From assembly GCA_963699255.1 (NCBI GenBank), contig OY969425.1, forward strand, positions 990,001 to 1,022,000: a DNA stretch of 32,000 nt. The letters run 5' to 3'. Source of the DNA: an uncultured bacterium. Lineage in GTDB: Bacteria > Margulisbacteria > WOR-1 > CAVSGV01. The translations under genes were made by a program, and so were the position numbers. Positions within the stretch are counted from its first letter, which is position 1. Each line of letters starts with the position of its first letter. This document shows positions 12,979 to 17,226 of the stretch, one piece after another. The notes below the pieces were generated by a model. The model was not told the DNA's origin. It did no database searches and saw nothing but the letters and a program-made list of their open reading frames with translations.

Positions 12979-14562
12979 TTATGTCGCGATCCTGGGAAAG
13001 AGTGGCATACCTTTGTTGATCTTAGCAGCAATTTTTTTGCCAAATTCGAGGTTTTTTGGGTCGTCAAGTTCTGACTTTGACAGACCCATCTGGGCAAGCA
13101 TTGCGTTCGAAGTGGCCGGCATAAAAGGCCCTATCATGACCGCCGTTAACCTTAATATTTCAAACAAATTATACATCACGGCCTTCAGTTCTTCGTTCTT
13201 CCCTTCCTTTGAAAGTTTCCAGGGAGCTTCTTTTTCAATATAATTGTTCGCCAGATTGATGAGCTTCCAGACGGAGGCAAGCGCCTCGGAAAATTGAAGT
13301 CCATCCATGTGTTTTGAATATATAGCCGGGGTCTCCTTCGAGAGTTTCACCAGCTGGGAGCTTATGTCGTCAAAGTCCTGCTTAACGGGCATTGACACTT
13401 CGCCGTTGAAATATTTCTCGACCATCGTGAGAGACCTGTTAAGGAGGTTGCCCATATCGTTCGCAAGATCGGAGTTGAACCTCGTTATCAGCGCGTTCTT
13501 TGAATAATCACCGTCATCGCCGAAAGGAACTTCCCTTAATAAAAAGTACCTTACCGCGTCAACGCCGAATTCTTTTGACAGCGCTATCGGGTCAGCGACG
13601 TTCCCTTTTGATTTGGACATCTTCTGGCCTTCGGACGTCCACCATCCGTGGCCGAATATTGTCCTGGGAAGCTTAAGTCCCAATGCCATCAGCATGCACG
13701 GCCATATGACCGCATGGAACCTGACGATCTCTTTCCCCATCAAATGCACGTCCGCCGGCCATAACCTTTCGAACCTCGGCTGGTTCAAGCCGTATCCGGG
13801 CGCCGTAATATAATTGATAAGCGCGTCGAACCAGACGTAAACCACGTGTTTCGGGTCTTCCTTTACCGGGACACCCCAGCTGAAGGCCGTTCTTGTGACG
13901 CTTAGATCCTTCAGCCCGTGCTTCATGAAGCTGATGACCTCGTTCCTGCGCGATTCGGGCTTAATGAAATCGGGATGCGCTTCAATGTGATGGATCAGAT
14001 CCTTCTCATATTTGGAAAGCTTGAAGAAATACGTCTTTTCTTTGATCTTTTGCACCGGCCTTCCGCAATCCGGGCAGAAGTTGCCGTGGGGCTTATGCTC
14101 CACATCGATCGTCTTTGCTTTCGGAGTGTCAAGTTTCGTTTCCTTCAGCTGAAGATCGGTCCAGAAAGTTTCACACGGCGTGCAATACCATCCTTCGTAT
14201 TCTCCCTTGTAAATGTCCCCGGTCTCCAGCAGTTTGGAAAAAACGCTCTGTACCACCTTTACATGCCTGTCCTCCGTAGTGCGGATGAAATCATTATAAG
14301 AAACATTGAGCATTTCCCAGGCGGACTTGAACCTGGTCACAATATCATCACAAAATTCCTGCGGATCTTTGCCCTGGGCTTTTGCCGCCTCCGCTATCTT
14401 TTGGCCGTGCTCATCAGTTCCCGTCAGGAAAAATACGTCATCCCCTTTTAATCTTTTGTAGCGCGCCAGGACATCCGCTGCAATGGTCGTATAAGCATGC
14501 CCTATGTGAGGAATGTCATTGACGTAATAAAGAGGTGTGGTTAAGTAGAATTTCTCTTTCAT
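12979..14562 (-). CDS. metG: methionine--tRNA ligase
   Basis: HIGH motif (PHIGHAYTT), KMSKS motif (QKMSKSKGN), Zn-knuckle cysteines (CTPCETFW..CPDCGRP). Start taken at ATG 14562 (MKEKFYLTTPLYYVNDIP). The 46 upstream ORF-track codons are read through a GC hairpin and a repeat arm. Confidence 0.95.
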   Translation of the reverse strand: MKEKFYLTTPLYYVNDIPHIGHAYTTIAADVLARYKRLKGDDVFFLTGTDEHGQKIAEAAKAQGKDPQEFCDDIVTRFKSAWEMLNVSYNDFIRTTEDRHVKVVQSVFSKLLETGDIYKGEYEGWYCTPCETFWTDLQLKETKLDTPKAKTIDVEHKPHGNFCPDCGRPVQKIKEKTYFFKLSKYEKDLIHHIEAHPDFIKPESRRNEVISFMKHGLKDLSVTRTAFSWGVPVKEDPKHVVYVWFDALINYITAPGYGLNQPRFERLWPADVHLMGKEIVRFHAVIWPCMLMALGLKLPRTIFGHGWWTSEGQKMSKSKGNVADPIALSKEFGVDAVRYFLLREVPFGDDGDYSKNALITRFNSDLANDMGNLLNRSLTMVEKYFNGEVSMPVKQDFDDISSQLVKLSKETPAIYSKHMDGLQFSEALASVWKLINLANNYIEKEAPWKLSKEGKNEELKAVMYNLFEILRLTAVMIGPFMPATSNAMLAQMGLSKSELDDPKNLEFGKKIAAKINKGMPLFPRIAT

Positions 14563-14596
14563 GAATGGAATTATAGCATAAAAATGAGGTGTGAGA

Positions 14597-14616
14597 CCCC
14601 GCGACTTCGCGCGGGG
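14597..14616. repeat. GC-rich hairpin CCCCGCG-ACTTCG-CGCGGGG
   Basis: Perfect 7-bp stem in the metG / proteasome-like divergent intergenic region. Confidence 0.6.
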
Positions 14617-14656
14617 CAAGCGCGAGATGGGAAGTGAGAGATGTGAAAATACAAAT

Positions 14657-14682
14657 AGTACGATCGTTATAGTACGATCGTT
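14657..14682. promoter_or_regulatory. two tandem copies of AGTACGATCGTT, each with the perfect palindrome ACGATCGT; candidate operator
   Basis: Copies at 14657-14668 and 14671-14682 (14-bp period). The second ends 2 nt before the -35 hexamer. Confidence 0.45.
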
Positions 14683-14683
14683 T

Positions 14684-14712
14684 TTGCAAATATCGGTCAA
14701 AAGGAATATAAT
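14684..14712 (+). promoter_or_regulatory. sigma70-like promoter: -35 TTGCAA, 17-nt spacer, -10 TATAAT
   Basis: TTGCAA at 14684-14689 and TATAAT at 14707-14712, read directly. The predicted TSS is near 14718-14720, which is downstream of ATG 14715 and 7-9 nt upstream of ATG 14727. Confidence 0.55.
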
Positions 14713-14714
14713 CC

Positions 14715-15449
14715 ATGACGGTTGTTATGTCATTAGTCATTACAATATATGTACGCGAGGGCATCGTCATGGCCAGCGACAGCAGGCTGACCCTGAACGC
14801 CACGCAAAACCAGCCCGGCAGCCCTCAAATAGTGAATGTGGCGGTCGGACAAAGCGATACGGTATATAAAACTTTTTTGACCTCTAACAGGATCGGCATC
14901 TCAACTTTCGGCGCCGCGGATATCAAAGACGTACCGATCACCGGTTTTATGGAATCCTTCATAAACGACCACATCGCGCAAAAGAACGTAAGCCTTAACA
15001 ATGTGCCTCAGGAATTATTAAAATATTTCAGGAACATCTCCCCGGACCTCCAGATCGGCTTTCATGTAGCCGGCTATACATCGGCCAGCAACGTGCCGGA
15101 ACAAAGCGTCTGGGCGGTCGATGTTCACGGGAACGCTATCACCCGTCTTAATAAACCCGGGCAGCCCGGAGCATCCTGGGCGGGTGAAGCCGAGATACTG
15201 GCGAGGCTGATCAATCCGGTAAGGGTCGAGAACAGTCCAGGTAATTTTATCGATCTTCCTTTTGCCCAGATCCAGTTCGGATACTTTACCATACAGGATG
15301 CCGTTGATTTCGCCGTTTACGCGATAAGAACAACTATCGATTCTTTCAGGTTCCAACCCCGGCCCAAAACCGTCGGCGGGCCGATAGATATCCTGGTAAT
15401 AAGGCCGAACGAGGCTTTTTGGGTTCAGAGAAAAGAATTACACGCTTAG
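14715..15449 (+). CDS. proteasome beta-subunit-like Ntn hydrolase (Anbu/BPH/HslV-like), orphan
   Basis: The N-terminus M(TVVM)SLVITIYVREGIVMASDSRLT resembles HslV [22 protein letters not shown] and the Anbu-type ..GLVF.SDSRTNAG as I recall them. A downstream VYKTFL...IGISTFGAADI resembles the Lys33 / GxxG region. Start is either ATG 14715 (AAGGA 9 nt upstream) or in-frame ATG 14727, which the promoter geometry favours. Confidence 0.6.
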   Translation: MTVVMSLVITIYVREGIVMASDSRLTLNATQNQPGSPQIVNVAVGQSDTVYKTFLTSNRIGISTFGAADIKDVPITGFMESFINDHIAQKNVSLNNVPQELLKYFRNISPDLQIGFHVAGYTSASNVPEQSVWAVDVHGNAITRLNKPGQPGASWAGEAEILARLINPVRVENSPGNFIDLPFAQIQFGYFTIQDAVDFAVYAIRTTIDSFRFQPRPKTVGGPIDILVIRPNEAFWVQRKELHA

Positions 15450-15564
15450 ACAATATTTTTATGCTCCCTCGTCACAACTCCCTACAATTGTCGAATATCA
15501 CCACATCAATATAAGTCAATTAAACATAAAGCAATTGGAATAATAATTGCTTATCTCAATTTAC

Positions 15565-15951
15565 ATGTACATGAAACCCATTAAGAAAGTATTCGCAAGA
15601 CAGCTCAGAAGATACGAAACTAAAGCAGAAAAGATAATATGGAGACTTCTAAGAAATAGACGTTTTCAAGGGTTTAAATTCCGCCGACAGCATGTTGTAG
15701 AAGGTTTCGTAGCAGATTTTTGCTGTCATAAGCTCAAGTTTATTGTAGAAATTGATGGATGGGTTCATAAGAAGCAGAAAAGATATGACGAAATTCGGGA
15801 TATTATTTTGATGTCAAAAGGCTATTCAATTATCAGATTCAAGAATGAGGATGTCGTCGAAGATTTATCGAAAGTATGCCAAGATTTGGAGAACGCCCTC
15901 ACCCTAGCCCTCTCCCCGGGGGAGAGGAAAGCAAAACGAAAGCTATTCTGA
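15565..15951 (+). CDS. DUF559 / Vsr-like endonuclease domain protein
   Basis: ARQLRRYETKAEKIIWRLLRNRRFQGFKFRRQHVVEGFVADFCCHKLKFIVEIDGWVH...IIRFKNEDV is the DUF559 pattern (restriction-endonuclease-like fold). Start uncertain: TTG 15547, ATG 15565 or ATG 15571. Confidence 0.8.
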   Translation: MYMKPIKKVFARQLRRYETKAEKIIWRLLRNRRFQGFKFRRQHVVEGFVADFCCHKLKFIVEIDGWVHKKQKRYDEIRDIILMSKGYSIIRFKNEDVVEDLSKVCQDLENALTLALSPGERKAKRKLF

Positions 15952-15996
15952 AGCTCTAGTGGGTGAGGTACTTTTCTCATCTCACATCTCTCATCT

Positions 15997-17226
15997 CTAC
16001 TTTCCCTGATATACCGGGAACAAGATCCTTATATGTGAAACATCCTCCATCGCGGTATTCGCCCATCTCGGAAGCTGTTTGTTAAGCGACATGTGGTAAA
16101 CCGGCATCATTTCCCATCCTTCTTTACCTTTGTATTTGACCTCCACCAAAAATCTCTCGAGCAGCCGTTTTTCCCAATCAGGCTTTTCTATGTCATCTTC
16201 ACTATATCTTGGTTGAAGATAATACTTGAAAAACGGAGCCATTCCCTCAAAAGACTGATCGAGAGCGTTCAAGGGGCCTATCACCATCCACTGGGTGAGA
16301 GTGCGTGCCGTGATCATCTCCTTGCTCATCCCGTGGCCGGAGGGGATTATCTGGAACCCTCCGATCAGGCCGAGCGGGGAAGTGGCTATGCAAATTACCC
16401 CCGCGTGGTTCGCGCGTATTCGCCCGACATCGGCGTATTCGGAACCGAGGAACCTGCCAACTCCCTCTATCGGGCGCAGGACCTGTCCGATGTAACGCTG
16501 CTCCCCGTCAATATATTTGATGGTTATCAGCCCGCCGAACCTGTTCTCAAAAATGATCTCTTTCGGGTATCTCGCCGGCCTTTCGACATTGATCAAGATG
16601 ACATCCCCGATGCGGGGGATATATCCGGTCTTGAGCGGGTAAAGGTTCCCGCTTGAGTCGGAGGTGGACACCGTGTTGCCAACAAAAGGGGAATATCCTC
16701 CGCCGAATATGCCATGTCCTGCATTGATGTCCGTGTATATGGTGGCTTCCTGGCTTGTTCTCATTTTGGGATCGGCAGAGTAATCTTCTTTTGGAAGGAT
16801 GTTGAAGATAACGCCTTTATCATCGATCGAGTTGTAATCGGTCTTTATGTGGATGGCGTTCACGGCCGTAGCCGCAACGTCGCCGTCGTCGATCCACTTA
16901 GAAGCCGTATATCCCTGGTTGCTCACCATCTTAGCCGGAAGAATGACATGCCCGAGAGTTTTCCAGGTCTGGCCCTTATTTTCACTGACCTCGATCGATC
17001 CCCCTGCGGCGTTGGATATCCTGATCCTGTACATTTCCATCATCATGGGCCTGTTCTCCGGAGCTATTGATTCTGAGGTCCCGATAGTTTGGAGAGAAGA
17101 ATATGATTTACCCGCAAAAAACACTAAACCTGCGACTAAAGTCGCGGTTAAAGTCAAAATTATCCGAGACTTTACCCCAACACGTTGGTTGGGGTTTAGT
17201 TTCGGGGCATTTTTTTCATGTGGCAT
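15997..17226 (-). CDS. hypothetical protein with one Asp-box (BNR) motif
   Basis: Long ORF with codon usage like its neighbours. It has a SENKGQTW Asp-box (16963-16986). The first ~36 codons are translated from palindromic repeats at 17127-17205. An alternative start is the ATG triplet at 17046-17038 (MMMEMYRIR). Confidence 0.55.
   Translation of the reverse strand: MPHEKNAPKLNPNQRVGVKSRIILTLTATLVAGLVFFAGKSYSSLQTIGTSESIAPENRPMMMEMYRIRISNAAGGSIEVSENKGQTWKTLGHVILPAKMVSNQGYTASKWIDDGDVAATAVNAIHIKTDYNSIDDKGVIFNILPKEDYSADPKMRTSQEATIYTDINAGHGIFGGGYSPFVGNTVSTSDSSGNLYPLKTGYIPRIGDVILINVERPARYPKEIIFENRFGGLITIKYIDGEQRYIGQVLRPIEGVGRFLGSEYADVGRIRANHAGVICIATSPLGLIGGFQIIPSGHGMSKEMITARTLTQWMVIGPLNALDQSFEGMAPFFKYYLQPRYSEDDIEKPDWEKRLLERFLVEVKYKGKEGWEMMPVYHMSLNKQLPRWANTAMEDVSHIRILFPVYQGK
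17127..17205. repeat. element A (AACCTGCGACT-AA-AGTCGCGGTT) followed by element C split by a nested element B
   Basis: A occupies 17127-17149. CCGAGACT at 17164-17171 pairs with AGTTTCGG at 17198-17205. Between them, ACCCCAAC at 17174-17181 pairs with GTTGGGGT at 17188-17195. Confidence 0.75.

Follow-up and report, generated by a model that had tools for sequence, protein, structure and literature searches.

We analysed a 32,000-nt stretch of DNA from an uncultured bacterium of the phylum Margulisbacteria (GenBank assembly GCA_963699255.1, contig OY969425.1, positions 990,001 to 1,022,000), which as a whole is called the window below, with positions numbered from its first letter. From about 4.9 to 32 kb, the window is an array of minus-strand genes, including those for a type II secretion system F protein, TatD, MetG, an orphan protein of 409 amino acids (aa), an M17 aminopeptidase, LemA, NDK and arginine synthesis, and only 2 genes in this array lie on the plus strand. 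One of these specifies a DUF559 protein; the other, whose neighbours are metG, the DUF559 gene and the 409-aa orphan, is the subject of this report. A first-pass annotation, made from the sequence alone, had read it as an orphan N-terminal-nucleophile (Ntn) hydrolase, and the open reading frame (ORF) and the motifs GIVMASDSR, VYKTFL and IGISTFGAADI on which that reading was built are all present. Our observations lead us to predict, with a probability of about 3 in 4, that the gene specifies a cytosolic, stand-alone Ntn hydrolase of the proteasome-beta superfamily that is made without a propeptide, and that it is an accessory, horizontally acquired gene with its own promoter. Features of the locus are collected in Table 1.

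Fold and relationship to the proteasome beta subunit

Direct scans of the hydrolase protein against Pfam, NCBIfam, PADLOC and PHROGs gave nothing useful; the protein itself has no match to PF00227 at the Pfam gathering threshold, and searches of PDB sequences with the single sequence or with a narrow profile of 29 sequences found no proteasome. Since these scans yielded no assignment, we tested the relationship through relatives and through structure. A profile of 63 divergent relatives, searched against the PDB, matched yeast beta1 with an E value of 3e-4, the beta subunit of Thermoplasma acidophilum with about 5e-3 and connectase (6zvz) with 0.067; in the same search Anbu appeared only at E 1.1, and HslV and BPH were not listed. 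Taken singly, 25 of the 63 relatives matched PF00227 weakly (best E 1.9e-5) and 3 matched the connectase N-domain, PF09894. When the family profile was compared by HHalign with 4 canonical archaeal beta subunits, taken from archaeal genomes that also carry the hydrolase family, the 2 aligned over 176 columns with a probability of 95.6% (E 1.3e-8).

An AlphaFold (AF2) model of the mature sequence, computed with 104 sequences, reached a mean predicted local distance difference test score (pLDDT) of 95.7 and a predicted template modelling score (pTM) of 0.91; a first model, computed with 29 sequences, had a pLDDT of 74.7. Foldseek searches of the PDB with the confident model gave 286 matches at E<=1e-3 (best E 7e-9, template modelling (TM) scores up to 0.73), and all 50 matches listed were 20S proteasome beta subunits. 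The first, weaker model gave 418 such matches, and all among the matches listed were again 20S beta subunits. The model has the alpha-beta-beta-alpha core of the proteasome beta subunit with helices H1 to H4, of which H1 and H2 correspond to residues 70-83 and 89-103 in mature numbering, as for the strands named next; it ends in strands at 220-224 and 229-233 and has no C-terminal helix H5. The proteasome-beta-type fold that had been proposed at first pass was thus found by Foldseek, by HHalign and by the profile match to yeast beta1. The profile comparison, the structural search and the multiple alignment that had been suggested as checks returned a significant match to this fold together with conserved equivalents of Asp17 and Lys33. 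By its modelled fold, its aligned nucleophile and its equivalents of Asp17, Lys33 and Gly47, we place the protein in the superfamily of proteasome-like Ntn hydrolases.

The suggestion that the protein resembles HslV, Anbu and BPH in particular held only in part: it is a proteasome homologue, but it lies closer to the 20S beta subunit (PF00227; yeast beta1/PRE3, archaeal PsmB), which it matched best in both the structural and the profile searches, and also to the homologues of PMI type considered below. It shares with HslV, Anbu and BPH a bacterial host, the lack of a propeptide, an N-terminal nucleophile after Met removal and the register of the triad, M-T-T... of HslV being aligned with M-S-L... 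of the hydrolase. It differs from them in having no HslU in its genome, no Anbu operon genes and no long C-terminal helix, and in its length of 240 aa with 2 insertions, compared with about 175 aa for the compact HslV. An identity with HslV was rejected, since HHalign to the single Escherichia coli HslV sequence, although in the right register, had a probability of only 5.8% over 28 columns, and no HslU was found. For Anbu, neither the operon of ATP-grasp, alpha-E and transglutaminase genes nor the H5 coiled-coil helix is present, and it is not BPH either, which the PDB profile search did not list.

The best structural match of all was a phage protein, A0A8S5LJV3 (Siphoviridae sp. ct3o911, in BFVD, annotated as 'Proteasome beta type-2 subunit'), with TM scores of 0.77/0.84, an rmsd of 3.1 Å and an E value of 8.6e-12; it was the sole strong match in the viral library. 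Comparison of the models suggests that the 2 proteins have a common set of insertions. However, the phage protein is only 19% identical to the hydrolase and is viral, whereas the gene in the window is chromosomal and has no phage genes near it.

Active-site residues and family-specific insertions

In the HHalign register, and in the numbering of the ORF, which is used below unless mature numbering is stated, Ser6 corresponds to proteasome Thr1, Asp22 to Asp/Glu17, Arg24 to Arg19, Lys52 to Lys33, Gly66 to Gly47 and Gly221 to Gly170; this is the register of the 20S beta subunit for all 6 positions, and the ADSR motif of yeast beta1 is identical to that of the hydrolase. We counted conservation in an alignment of 104 sequences that includes relatives down to 28% identity. 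Position 1 was Ser in 87 and Thr in 15 relatives (Ser or Thr in 102 of 104), the Asp17 equivalent was kept in 103, those of Arg19 and Lys33 in 99 each and that of Gly47 in 98, which amounts to 94-99% for the catalytic set. A local HMMER alignment to yeast beta1 had instead set the family Lys on Lys40; we rejected this placement on the strength of the HHalign register and of the 14-residue spacing from Lys to Gly47, which is the same as in the aligned archaeal beta subunits.

The first-pass annotation had placed the nucleophile on Ser6, directly after the internal Met5, by counting back from the conserved Asp, and the following observations agree with it: Asp22 lies exactly 16 residues on, HHalign gives the same register, and nearly all homologues begin at query Met5, with residue 1 of full-length relatives aligned to it. 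The consensus N-terminus of a 29-sequence alignment is M-S-F-I-I-T-L-Y-V-R-E-G-I-V-M-A-S-D-S-R. Among 227 relatives with intact N-termini, in which the nucleophile position was located from its distance of 16 residues to the conserved Asp, 189 have M-S and 18 have M-T, together 207 (about 91%); about 87% of them have Ser next to the initiator, and about 10% have Thr. The Met-Ser start of a Ser-type variant, also foreseen at first pass, is thus the prevailing form in the family.

Two insertions relative to the proteasome beta subunit were located from the HHalign gaps, one of 14 residues between strands S3 and S4, the other of about 25 residues between helices H3 and H4. In the model, the first extends a long beta-hairpin by the active site (mature strands 20-27 and 34-42, pLDDT 82-85), and the length of its loop varies among relatives. 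In a 298-aa relative (P0122), about 50 residues of Pro/Gln-rich low-complexity sequence expand exactly this loop, which is therefore surface-exposed and tolerant of change. Another relative of unusual length (P0269, 535 aa) was considered as a possible N-terminal extension or fusion and set aside: it has no Pfam domain, and its length is apparently an artefact of gene calling from a GTG start. Around the H3/H4 insertion, the model has helices at 155-161 and 188-206 and strands at 165-169 and 172-175 (mature numbering).

The loop that contains R165-D166-x-x-S169-G170 in proteasomes is represented in the hydrolase by R-P-K-T-V-G-G-P-I-D, in which Pro takes the place of Asp166 and Val that of Ser169 and which carries a family-specific conserved Lys. 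Position 166 is variable among the 104 relatives, position 169 is Val or Ile in all of them, and Gly170 is kept in 103. Other conserved residues, in mature numbering, are Asp43, Trp150-x-Gly152-Glu153, Gln189-Asp190, the Arg211-x-Lys213-Thr-Val-Gly-Gly loop and Asp220. In summary, the hydrolase differs from 20S beta subunits in having Ser at position 1, no propeptide, none of the Ser129, Asp166 and Ser169 equivalents, and the 2 insertions; it is also without an alpha subunit or an ATPase and falls below the Pfam threshold.

Table 1. Features of the hydrolase locus, in order of position in the window
Feature	Position	Strand	Remarks
Inserted opposite-strand block	14562..15996	.	Separates metG from the conserved 409-aa gene
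GC-rich perfect hairpin (CCCCGCG-ACTT-CGCGGGG region)	14596-14618		Between metG start and hydrolase promoter, within the inserted block
21-nt inverted repeat	14635-14655 and 15973-15993		Arms 81% complementary, perfect 12-nt core; near both block edges
Two perfect tandem copies of a 14-nt unit	14655-14682		Immediately 5' of the hydrolase -35 box
Sigma-70-like promoter (putative)	14684..14712	+	-35 TTGCAA 14684-14689, 17-nt spacer, -10 TATAAT 14707-14712
Proteasome-like Ntn hydrolase ORF	14715..15449	+	244 aa; longest frame at that place
In-frame upstream extension MTVV	14715..14726	+	Probably untranslated, from homologue starts and promoter position
Hydrolase coding sequence	14727..15449	+	240 aa with initiator Met; mature form 239 aa from Ser
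Ser codon TCA, predicted nucleophile (Ser6 ORF / Ser1 mature)	14730..14732	+	HHalign register; HMMER register to yeast beta1
Asp22-Ser23-Arg24 = proteasome Asp/Glu17-x-Arg19	14778..14786	+	HHalign; D 103/104, R 99/104
14-residue insertion between S3 and S4	14805..14846	+	Relative to proteasome beta; HHalign gap
Lys52 codon = proteasome Lys33	14868..14870	+	HHalign; K 99/104
Gly66 codon = Gly47 oxyanion hole	14910..14912	+	HHalign; G 98/104
Insertion between H3 and H4	15213..15290	+	Small beta-hairpin and loop; mature residues ~162-187; HHalign gaps
R-P-K-T-V-G-G-P-I-D motif	15360..15389	+	Homologous to proteasome R165-D166-x-x-S169-G170 loop
DUF559 gene (Vsr-like endonuclease fold)	15547..15951	+	PF04480, E 1.3e-35; neighbour only
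409-aa protein gene	15997-17226	-	No Pfam/NCBIfam match

Proposed reaction

Read from its sequence, the gene product is a partner-less and probably active relative of the proteasome catalytic subunit, with an N-terminal Ser in place of Thr. Translation would start at ATG 14727, and methionine aminopeptidase would cleave off the initiator Met, because the second residue, Ser, is small, exposing Ser1 (Ser6 in the ORF). Lys52, the Lys33 equivalent, would then activate the Ser1 hydroxyl, which would be oriented by Asp22, the Asp17 equivalent; Ser1 would attack a peptide or amide carbonyl, with the oxyanion stabilised by the backbone NH of Gly66 (the Gly47 equivalent), and water would resolve the acyl-enzyme with help of the free Ser1 amino group. 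A Ser1 nucleophile has a precedent in the connectase of Methanocaldococcus jannaschii, where Ser1 is exposed by methionine aminopeptidase and where Ser1 and Thr1 both work (PMC7980362), and a 2021 catalogue of proteasome homologues writes the common triad with Thr1/Ser1 (PMC8665760). Since the equivalents of Ser129, Asp166 and Ser169 are replaced and a conserved hairpin lies at S3/S4 beside the substrate channel, we expect a peptidase or amidase of narrow specificity, independent of an ATPase, and not a machine for general degradation. Alignment and model together suggest that the active site has been remodelled and is probably more specific.

Several points weigh against the proposal of an active, propeptide-free hydrolase. 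In proteasomes, Ser129, Asp166 and Ser169 support the amino group of Thr1; their equivalents are not kept in the hydrolase, being Ala/Gly (variable), Pro (variable) and Val/Ile, respectively, and an enzyme without them could have an activity that is weak, different or absent. ATG 14727 is not preceded by a good Shine-Dalgarno sequence, whereas ATG 14715 has AGGA 9 nt upstream, and our choice of start is drawn from the N-termini of the family and from the position of a predicted promoter. Also, we found no biochemical or functional work on this family or on the PMI families in the later literature.

Distribution, partners and the possibility of a ring-forming protease

At 90% identity, the homologues of the hydrolase formed 1,606 clusters, and at 50% identity they numbered 1,007 representatives; in the genome collection, at least 414 bacterial and archaeal species, almost all uncultured, encode a relative. 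We fetched 80 relative loci, all from metagenome-assembled genomes, and with others used 83 loci for clustering of neighbouring genes. The 80 loci span Chloroflexota, Deltaproteobacteria, Bacteroidota, Acidobacteriota, Firmicutes, Nitrospirota and groups of the Candidate Phyla Radiation (CPR), and, among archaea, Methanoregula, Bathyarchaeota and Thermoplasmatales, with relatives at 41-58% identity across phyla. By contrast with this wide range, a full-length copy was found in only 1 of the 146 genomes of the phylum that were searched, namely in that of the window itself. By these sequence data, the family has a patchy distribution and has spread horizontally. Distant relatives occur on a few viral contigs, no close one was found in the collections of isolated phages and plasmids that were searched, and the integrase seen near the hydrolase in 4 Chloroflexia loci is a weak lead.

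BLAST clustering of the neighbours at 2 stringencies gave no conserved partner: no family exceeded 6 of the 83 loci within 3 genes of the hydrolase, or 9 loci within 6 kb, and the recurrences that were seen mostly reflect lineage-specific synteny. The first-pass annotation had stated that no Anbu operon partner and no HslU is adjacent, and this is correct for the window: ATP-grasp, alpha-E and transglutaminase genes were found neither there nor in 3 Pfam-annotated contexts, and the whole genome has no TIGR00390 (HslU) match above cut-off, the best being a 419-aa frame with 99 bits, compared with the required 362. No match to PF00227 above cut-off occurs anywhere in the 1.77-Mb genome, which is hence without an alpha-subunit partner, and canonical PF00227 proteins (proteasome or HslV) were found in only 3 of the 146 genomes of the phylum. 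The hydrolase is thus the sole proteasome-type protein of this genome, in a lineage otherwise without HslV or proteasome. In G082, a genome of the same family as that of the window, there is a PF00227 match (locus L008) with an open frame of only 153 aa.

The best-placed alternative, which we nevertheless consider unlikely, is that the protein self-assembles into a ring or double ring, as HslV, BPH and Anbu do, and, with no ATPase dedicated to it, breaks down peptides or unfolded proteins, whose fragments might pass to downstream peptidases. For it, one can cite the core fold and helices H1 to H4 of ring-forming homologues, which are present, and the near absence of HslV and proteasome from the host phylum. 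An M17 aminopeptidase gene lies 2 genes away in the window, and 6 of the 83 loci, from 3 lineages (L015, L027, L047, L061, L016 and L023), have a gene for a tricorn-like protease of about 1,100 aa (PD40, Tricorn_C1, Peptidase_S41) at a distance of ~3 kb or less, which weakly suggests a connection with peptide breakdown. However, peptidase neighbours are mostly accounted for by lineage-specific synteny, the H3/H4 insertion falls at the contact between rings, and the C-terminal H5 is missing. The archaeal carriers keep normal alpha and beta subunits, that is, a full canonical proteasome, and the family is therefore no substitute for it; its rarity within the phylum likewise argues against a housekeeping role.

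Comparison with connectase and with catalogued homologues

Stand-alone relatives of the proteasome with Ser1 variants form a category that is already in the literature, where homologues beyond HslV, Anbu, BPH and connectase have been catalogued and are uncharacterised. Of the groups described by Fuchs, Alva and Lupas in 2021, the hydrolase most resembles the PMI-type (Proteasome homolog with Multiple Insertions)/PHD homologues of group II, which have the same core of Thr1/Ser1, Asp17, Lys33 and Gly47 and no propeptide (PMC8665760). The catalogue describes insertions between H3 and H4 for PMI-2 to PMI-6 and at S3/S4 for PMI-5 and PMI-6, and the hydrolase has both; a long insertion that follows H2 in PMI-3 and PMI-4 is not seen in its model (PMC8665760). 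Both sets of proteins have a broad and sparse range in bacteria and Euryarchaeota with few phage copies, as for PMI-4, and for both there is no conserved genomic context, no AAA+ partner and no described function (PMC8665760). Our survey of neighbours agrees with the statement in the same report that such homologues have no informative genomic context (PMC8665760). We draw this likeness from the published description and do not tie the hydrolase to a named cluster (PMI-4, PMI-5, PHD or an uncatalogued one); the accessions of 10 relatives (MBI3941571.1, KPK89597.1 and others) match none of the published representatives, such as HDY66466.1, OGZ26396.1, OGP72033.1 and WP_179179973.1.

The comparison with connectase (MJ0548/PF09894) bears on a second alternative, namely that the hydrolase is a sequence-specific transpeptidase/ligase or a processing enzyme for a single substrate, probably a monomer or small oligomer, in which the S3/S4 hairpin would serve as a substrate clamp. 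Like connectase, it stands alone, alternates between Ser1 and Thr1, predicted to be exposed by methionine aminopeptidase, and has weak profile similarity to connectase (6zvz and PF09894, above); its S3/S4 insertion near the active site occupies the very place of the connectase signature element, and its H3/H4 insertion coincides with the site of contact between proteasome rings (PMC8665760). Identity of 50-60% across domains of life also suggests a tightly constrained interaction. On the other hand, connectase lacks H1 and H2, has an S3/S4 insertion of 2 helices, is restricted to hydrogenotrophic methanogens and acts on MtrA, whereas the present family has H1 and H2, a beta-hairpin as its insertion and a range that covers many bacterial phyla and goes far beyond methanogens; on these grounds we rejected an identity with connectase itself. 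In addition, no gene for a substrate is conserved in the neighbourhood, and the S3/S4 loop tolerates large low-complexity expansions. We therefore hold a connectase-like function to be improbable.

A related proposal, to which we give about the same small weight, is that the family is a distinct Ser1 enzyme that moves horizontally and whose active site has been rebuilt at its periphery. The protein would then be no bulk protease, but a sequence-specific processing enzyme, amidase or ligase whose target would be shared by bacteria and archaea. It draws on the loss of Ser129, Asp166 and Ser169, on the near-invariant hairpin Asp, Trp-x-Gly-Glu, Gln-Asp and the Lys of R-x-K-T-V-G-G, and on the modelled beta-hairpin over the substrate channel. 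If it were true, the family would provide a second connectase-like tool enzyme. Connectase, the one characterised divergent homologue, proved to be a useful protein ligase, and a second specific enzyme of the superfamily would be of practical interest. The family is a good candidate for first biochemistry, being large, conserved at 50-60% identity between bacteria and archaea, endowed with a natural Ser1, free of partners and confidently modelled.

Translation start, promoter and state of the active site

The promoter assignment in Table 1 came from a promoter scan, in which the element had 10 of 12 matches, with a predicted transcript start at about 14718-14721. The closest genomic relative of the hydrolase gene, at locus L001 (88% identity, syntenic), has the same TTGCAA-N17-TATAAT element 49 nt upstream of its ATG; because of this distance from the start codon, we take the element to be a promoter. 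In L001, the hydrolase reading frame has GGAGGAATT directly 5' of ATG-TCA (Met-Ser), with GGAGGA as a ribosome site and without an upstream ATG. In the window, the -10 box ends at 14712, and ATG 14715 therefore lies at or before the expected transcript start. The AAGGA that precedes it falls within the conserved promoter element and is thus part of the promoter, rather than a ribosome-binding site for ATG 14715. By sequence comparison, then, ATG 14727 (Met5) is almost certainly the true start, and we infer that the protein begins with Met-Ser and is synthesised without a propeptide.

In proteasome beta subunits, autoprocessing sites usually carry Gly at position -1. If the hydrolase were instead translated from ATG 14715, a 5-residue propeptide, MTVVM, would have to be cut off autocatalytically before Ser6, as in proteasome beta, at a site with Met at -1. 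ATG 14715 is in frame and has the upstream AGGA, and no obvious ribosome-binding site is seen at ATG 14727; yet this AGGA belongs to the promoter element shared with L001, transcription probably starts downstream of 14715, about 91% of relatives have Met-Ser or Met-Thr as their exact N-terminus, and L001 has its strong GGAGGA before the Met-Ser codons and no ATG upstream. A propeptide is, in our judgement, very unlikely.

Still less credible is the notion that the protein is a catalytically dead structural protein or pseudoenzyme. The loss of the Ser129, Asp166 and Ser169 equivalents would fit such a protein, and the activity of the hydrolase is a prediction only. But Ser/Thr1, Asp17, Arg19, Lys33 and Gly47 are kept in 94-99% of the 104 relatives, even at 28% identity, and conservation of this degree is the signature of purifying selection on the active site.

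The inserted block and neighbouring genes

In a sister genus (G086), the 409-aa gene and metG overlap, the stop codon of the former with the start of the latter, which is 75% identical to metG of the window. Since the 2 flanking genes abut there, the opposite-strand block between them in the window is an insertion, and the comparison indicates that the hydrolase gene was acquired by insertion between 2 housekeeping genes, into what would be a housekeeping operon. At L001, the hydrolase occupies the same site without DUF559, with an intergenic gap of about 45 bp and a different extra gene. The DUF559 segment (15450-15996) has a local GC content of 36-40%, is missing from the otherwise syntenic L001, and no DUF559 gene was found beside the hydrolase in the 80 other loci. 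It seems to be a small selfish element that entered the convergent intergenic gap separately. The first-pass annotation had described a DUF559 endonuclease as the only companion of the hydrolase in an island bounded by inverted repeats; the gene and the repeat arms do exist, but DUF559 is no functional companion. It is doubtful that the inverted repeat is the end of a mobile element, because its right arm is a TCTC-rich simple-sequence expansion that L001 lacks. Least probable of all is a single 2-gene mobile or defence module of hydrolase and DUF559 bounded by this repeat, for which one could cite the strand shared by the 2 genes against all neighbours, their block absent from the sister genus, the arms near both block edges and a weak match of DUF559 to a PADLOC homing-endonuclease model, but which is contradicted by L001, with the hydrolase at the same site and another gene in place of DUF559 and the right arm, by the lack of such a pair elsewhere, by the absence of a PADLOC match for the hydrolase, by the simple-sequence nature of the right arm and by the distinctly lower GC content of DUF559, which suggests a separate insertion.

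Three minor features of the region were noted. The 14-nt unit that is repeated next to the -35 box is ATAGTACGATCGTT; each copy holds the palindrome ACGATCGT, the repeat is not present in L001, and it may be an operator for a regulator. Farther from the promoter, on its metG side, is the perfect GC-rich hairpin entered in Table 1. The 409-aa protein is conserved in 7 of 7 genomes of the order, at 62-82% identity, and is, by sequence comparison, a lineage-wide orphan whose gene is translationally coupled to metG in the sister genus.

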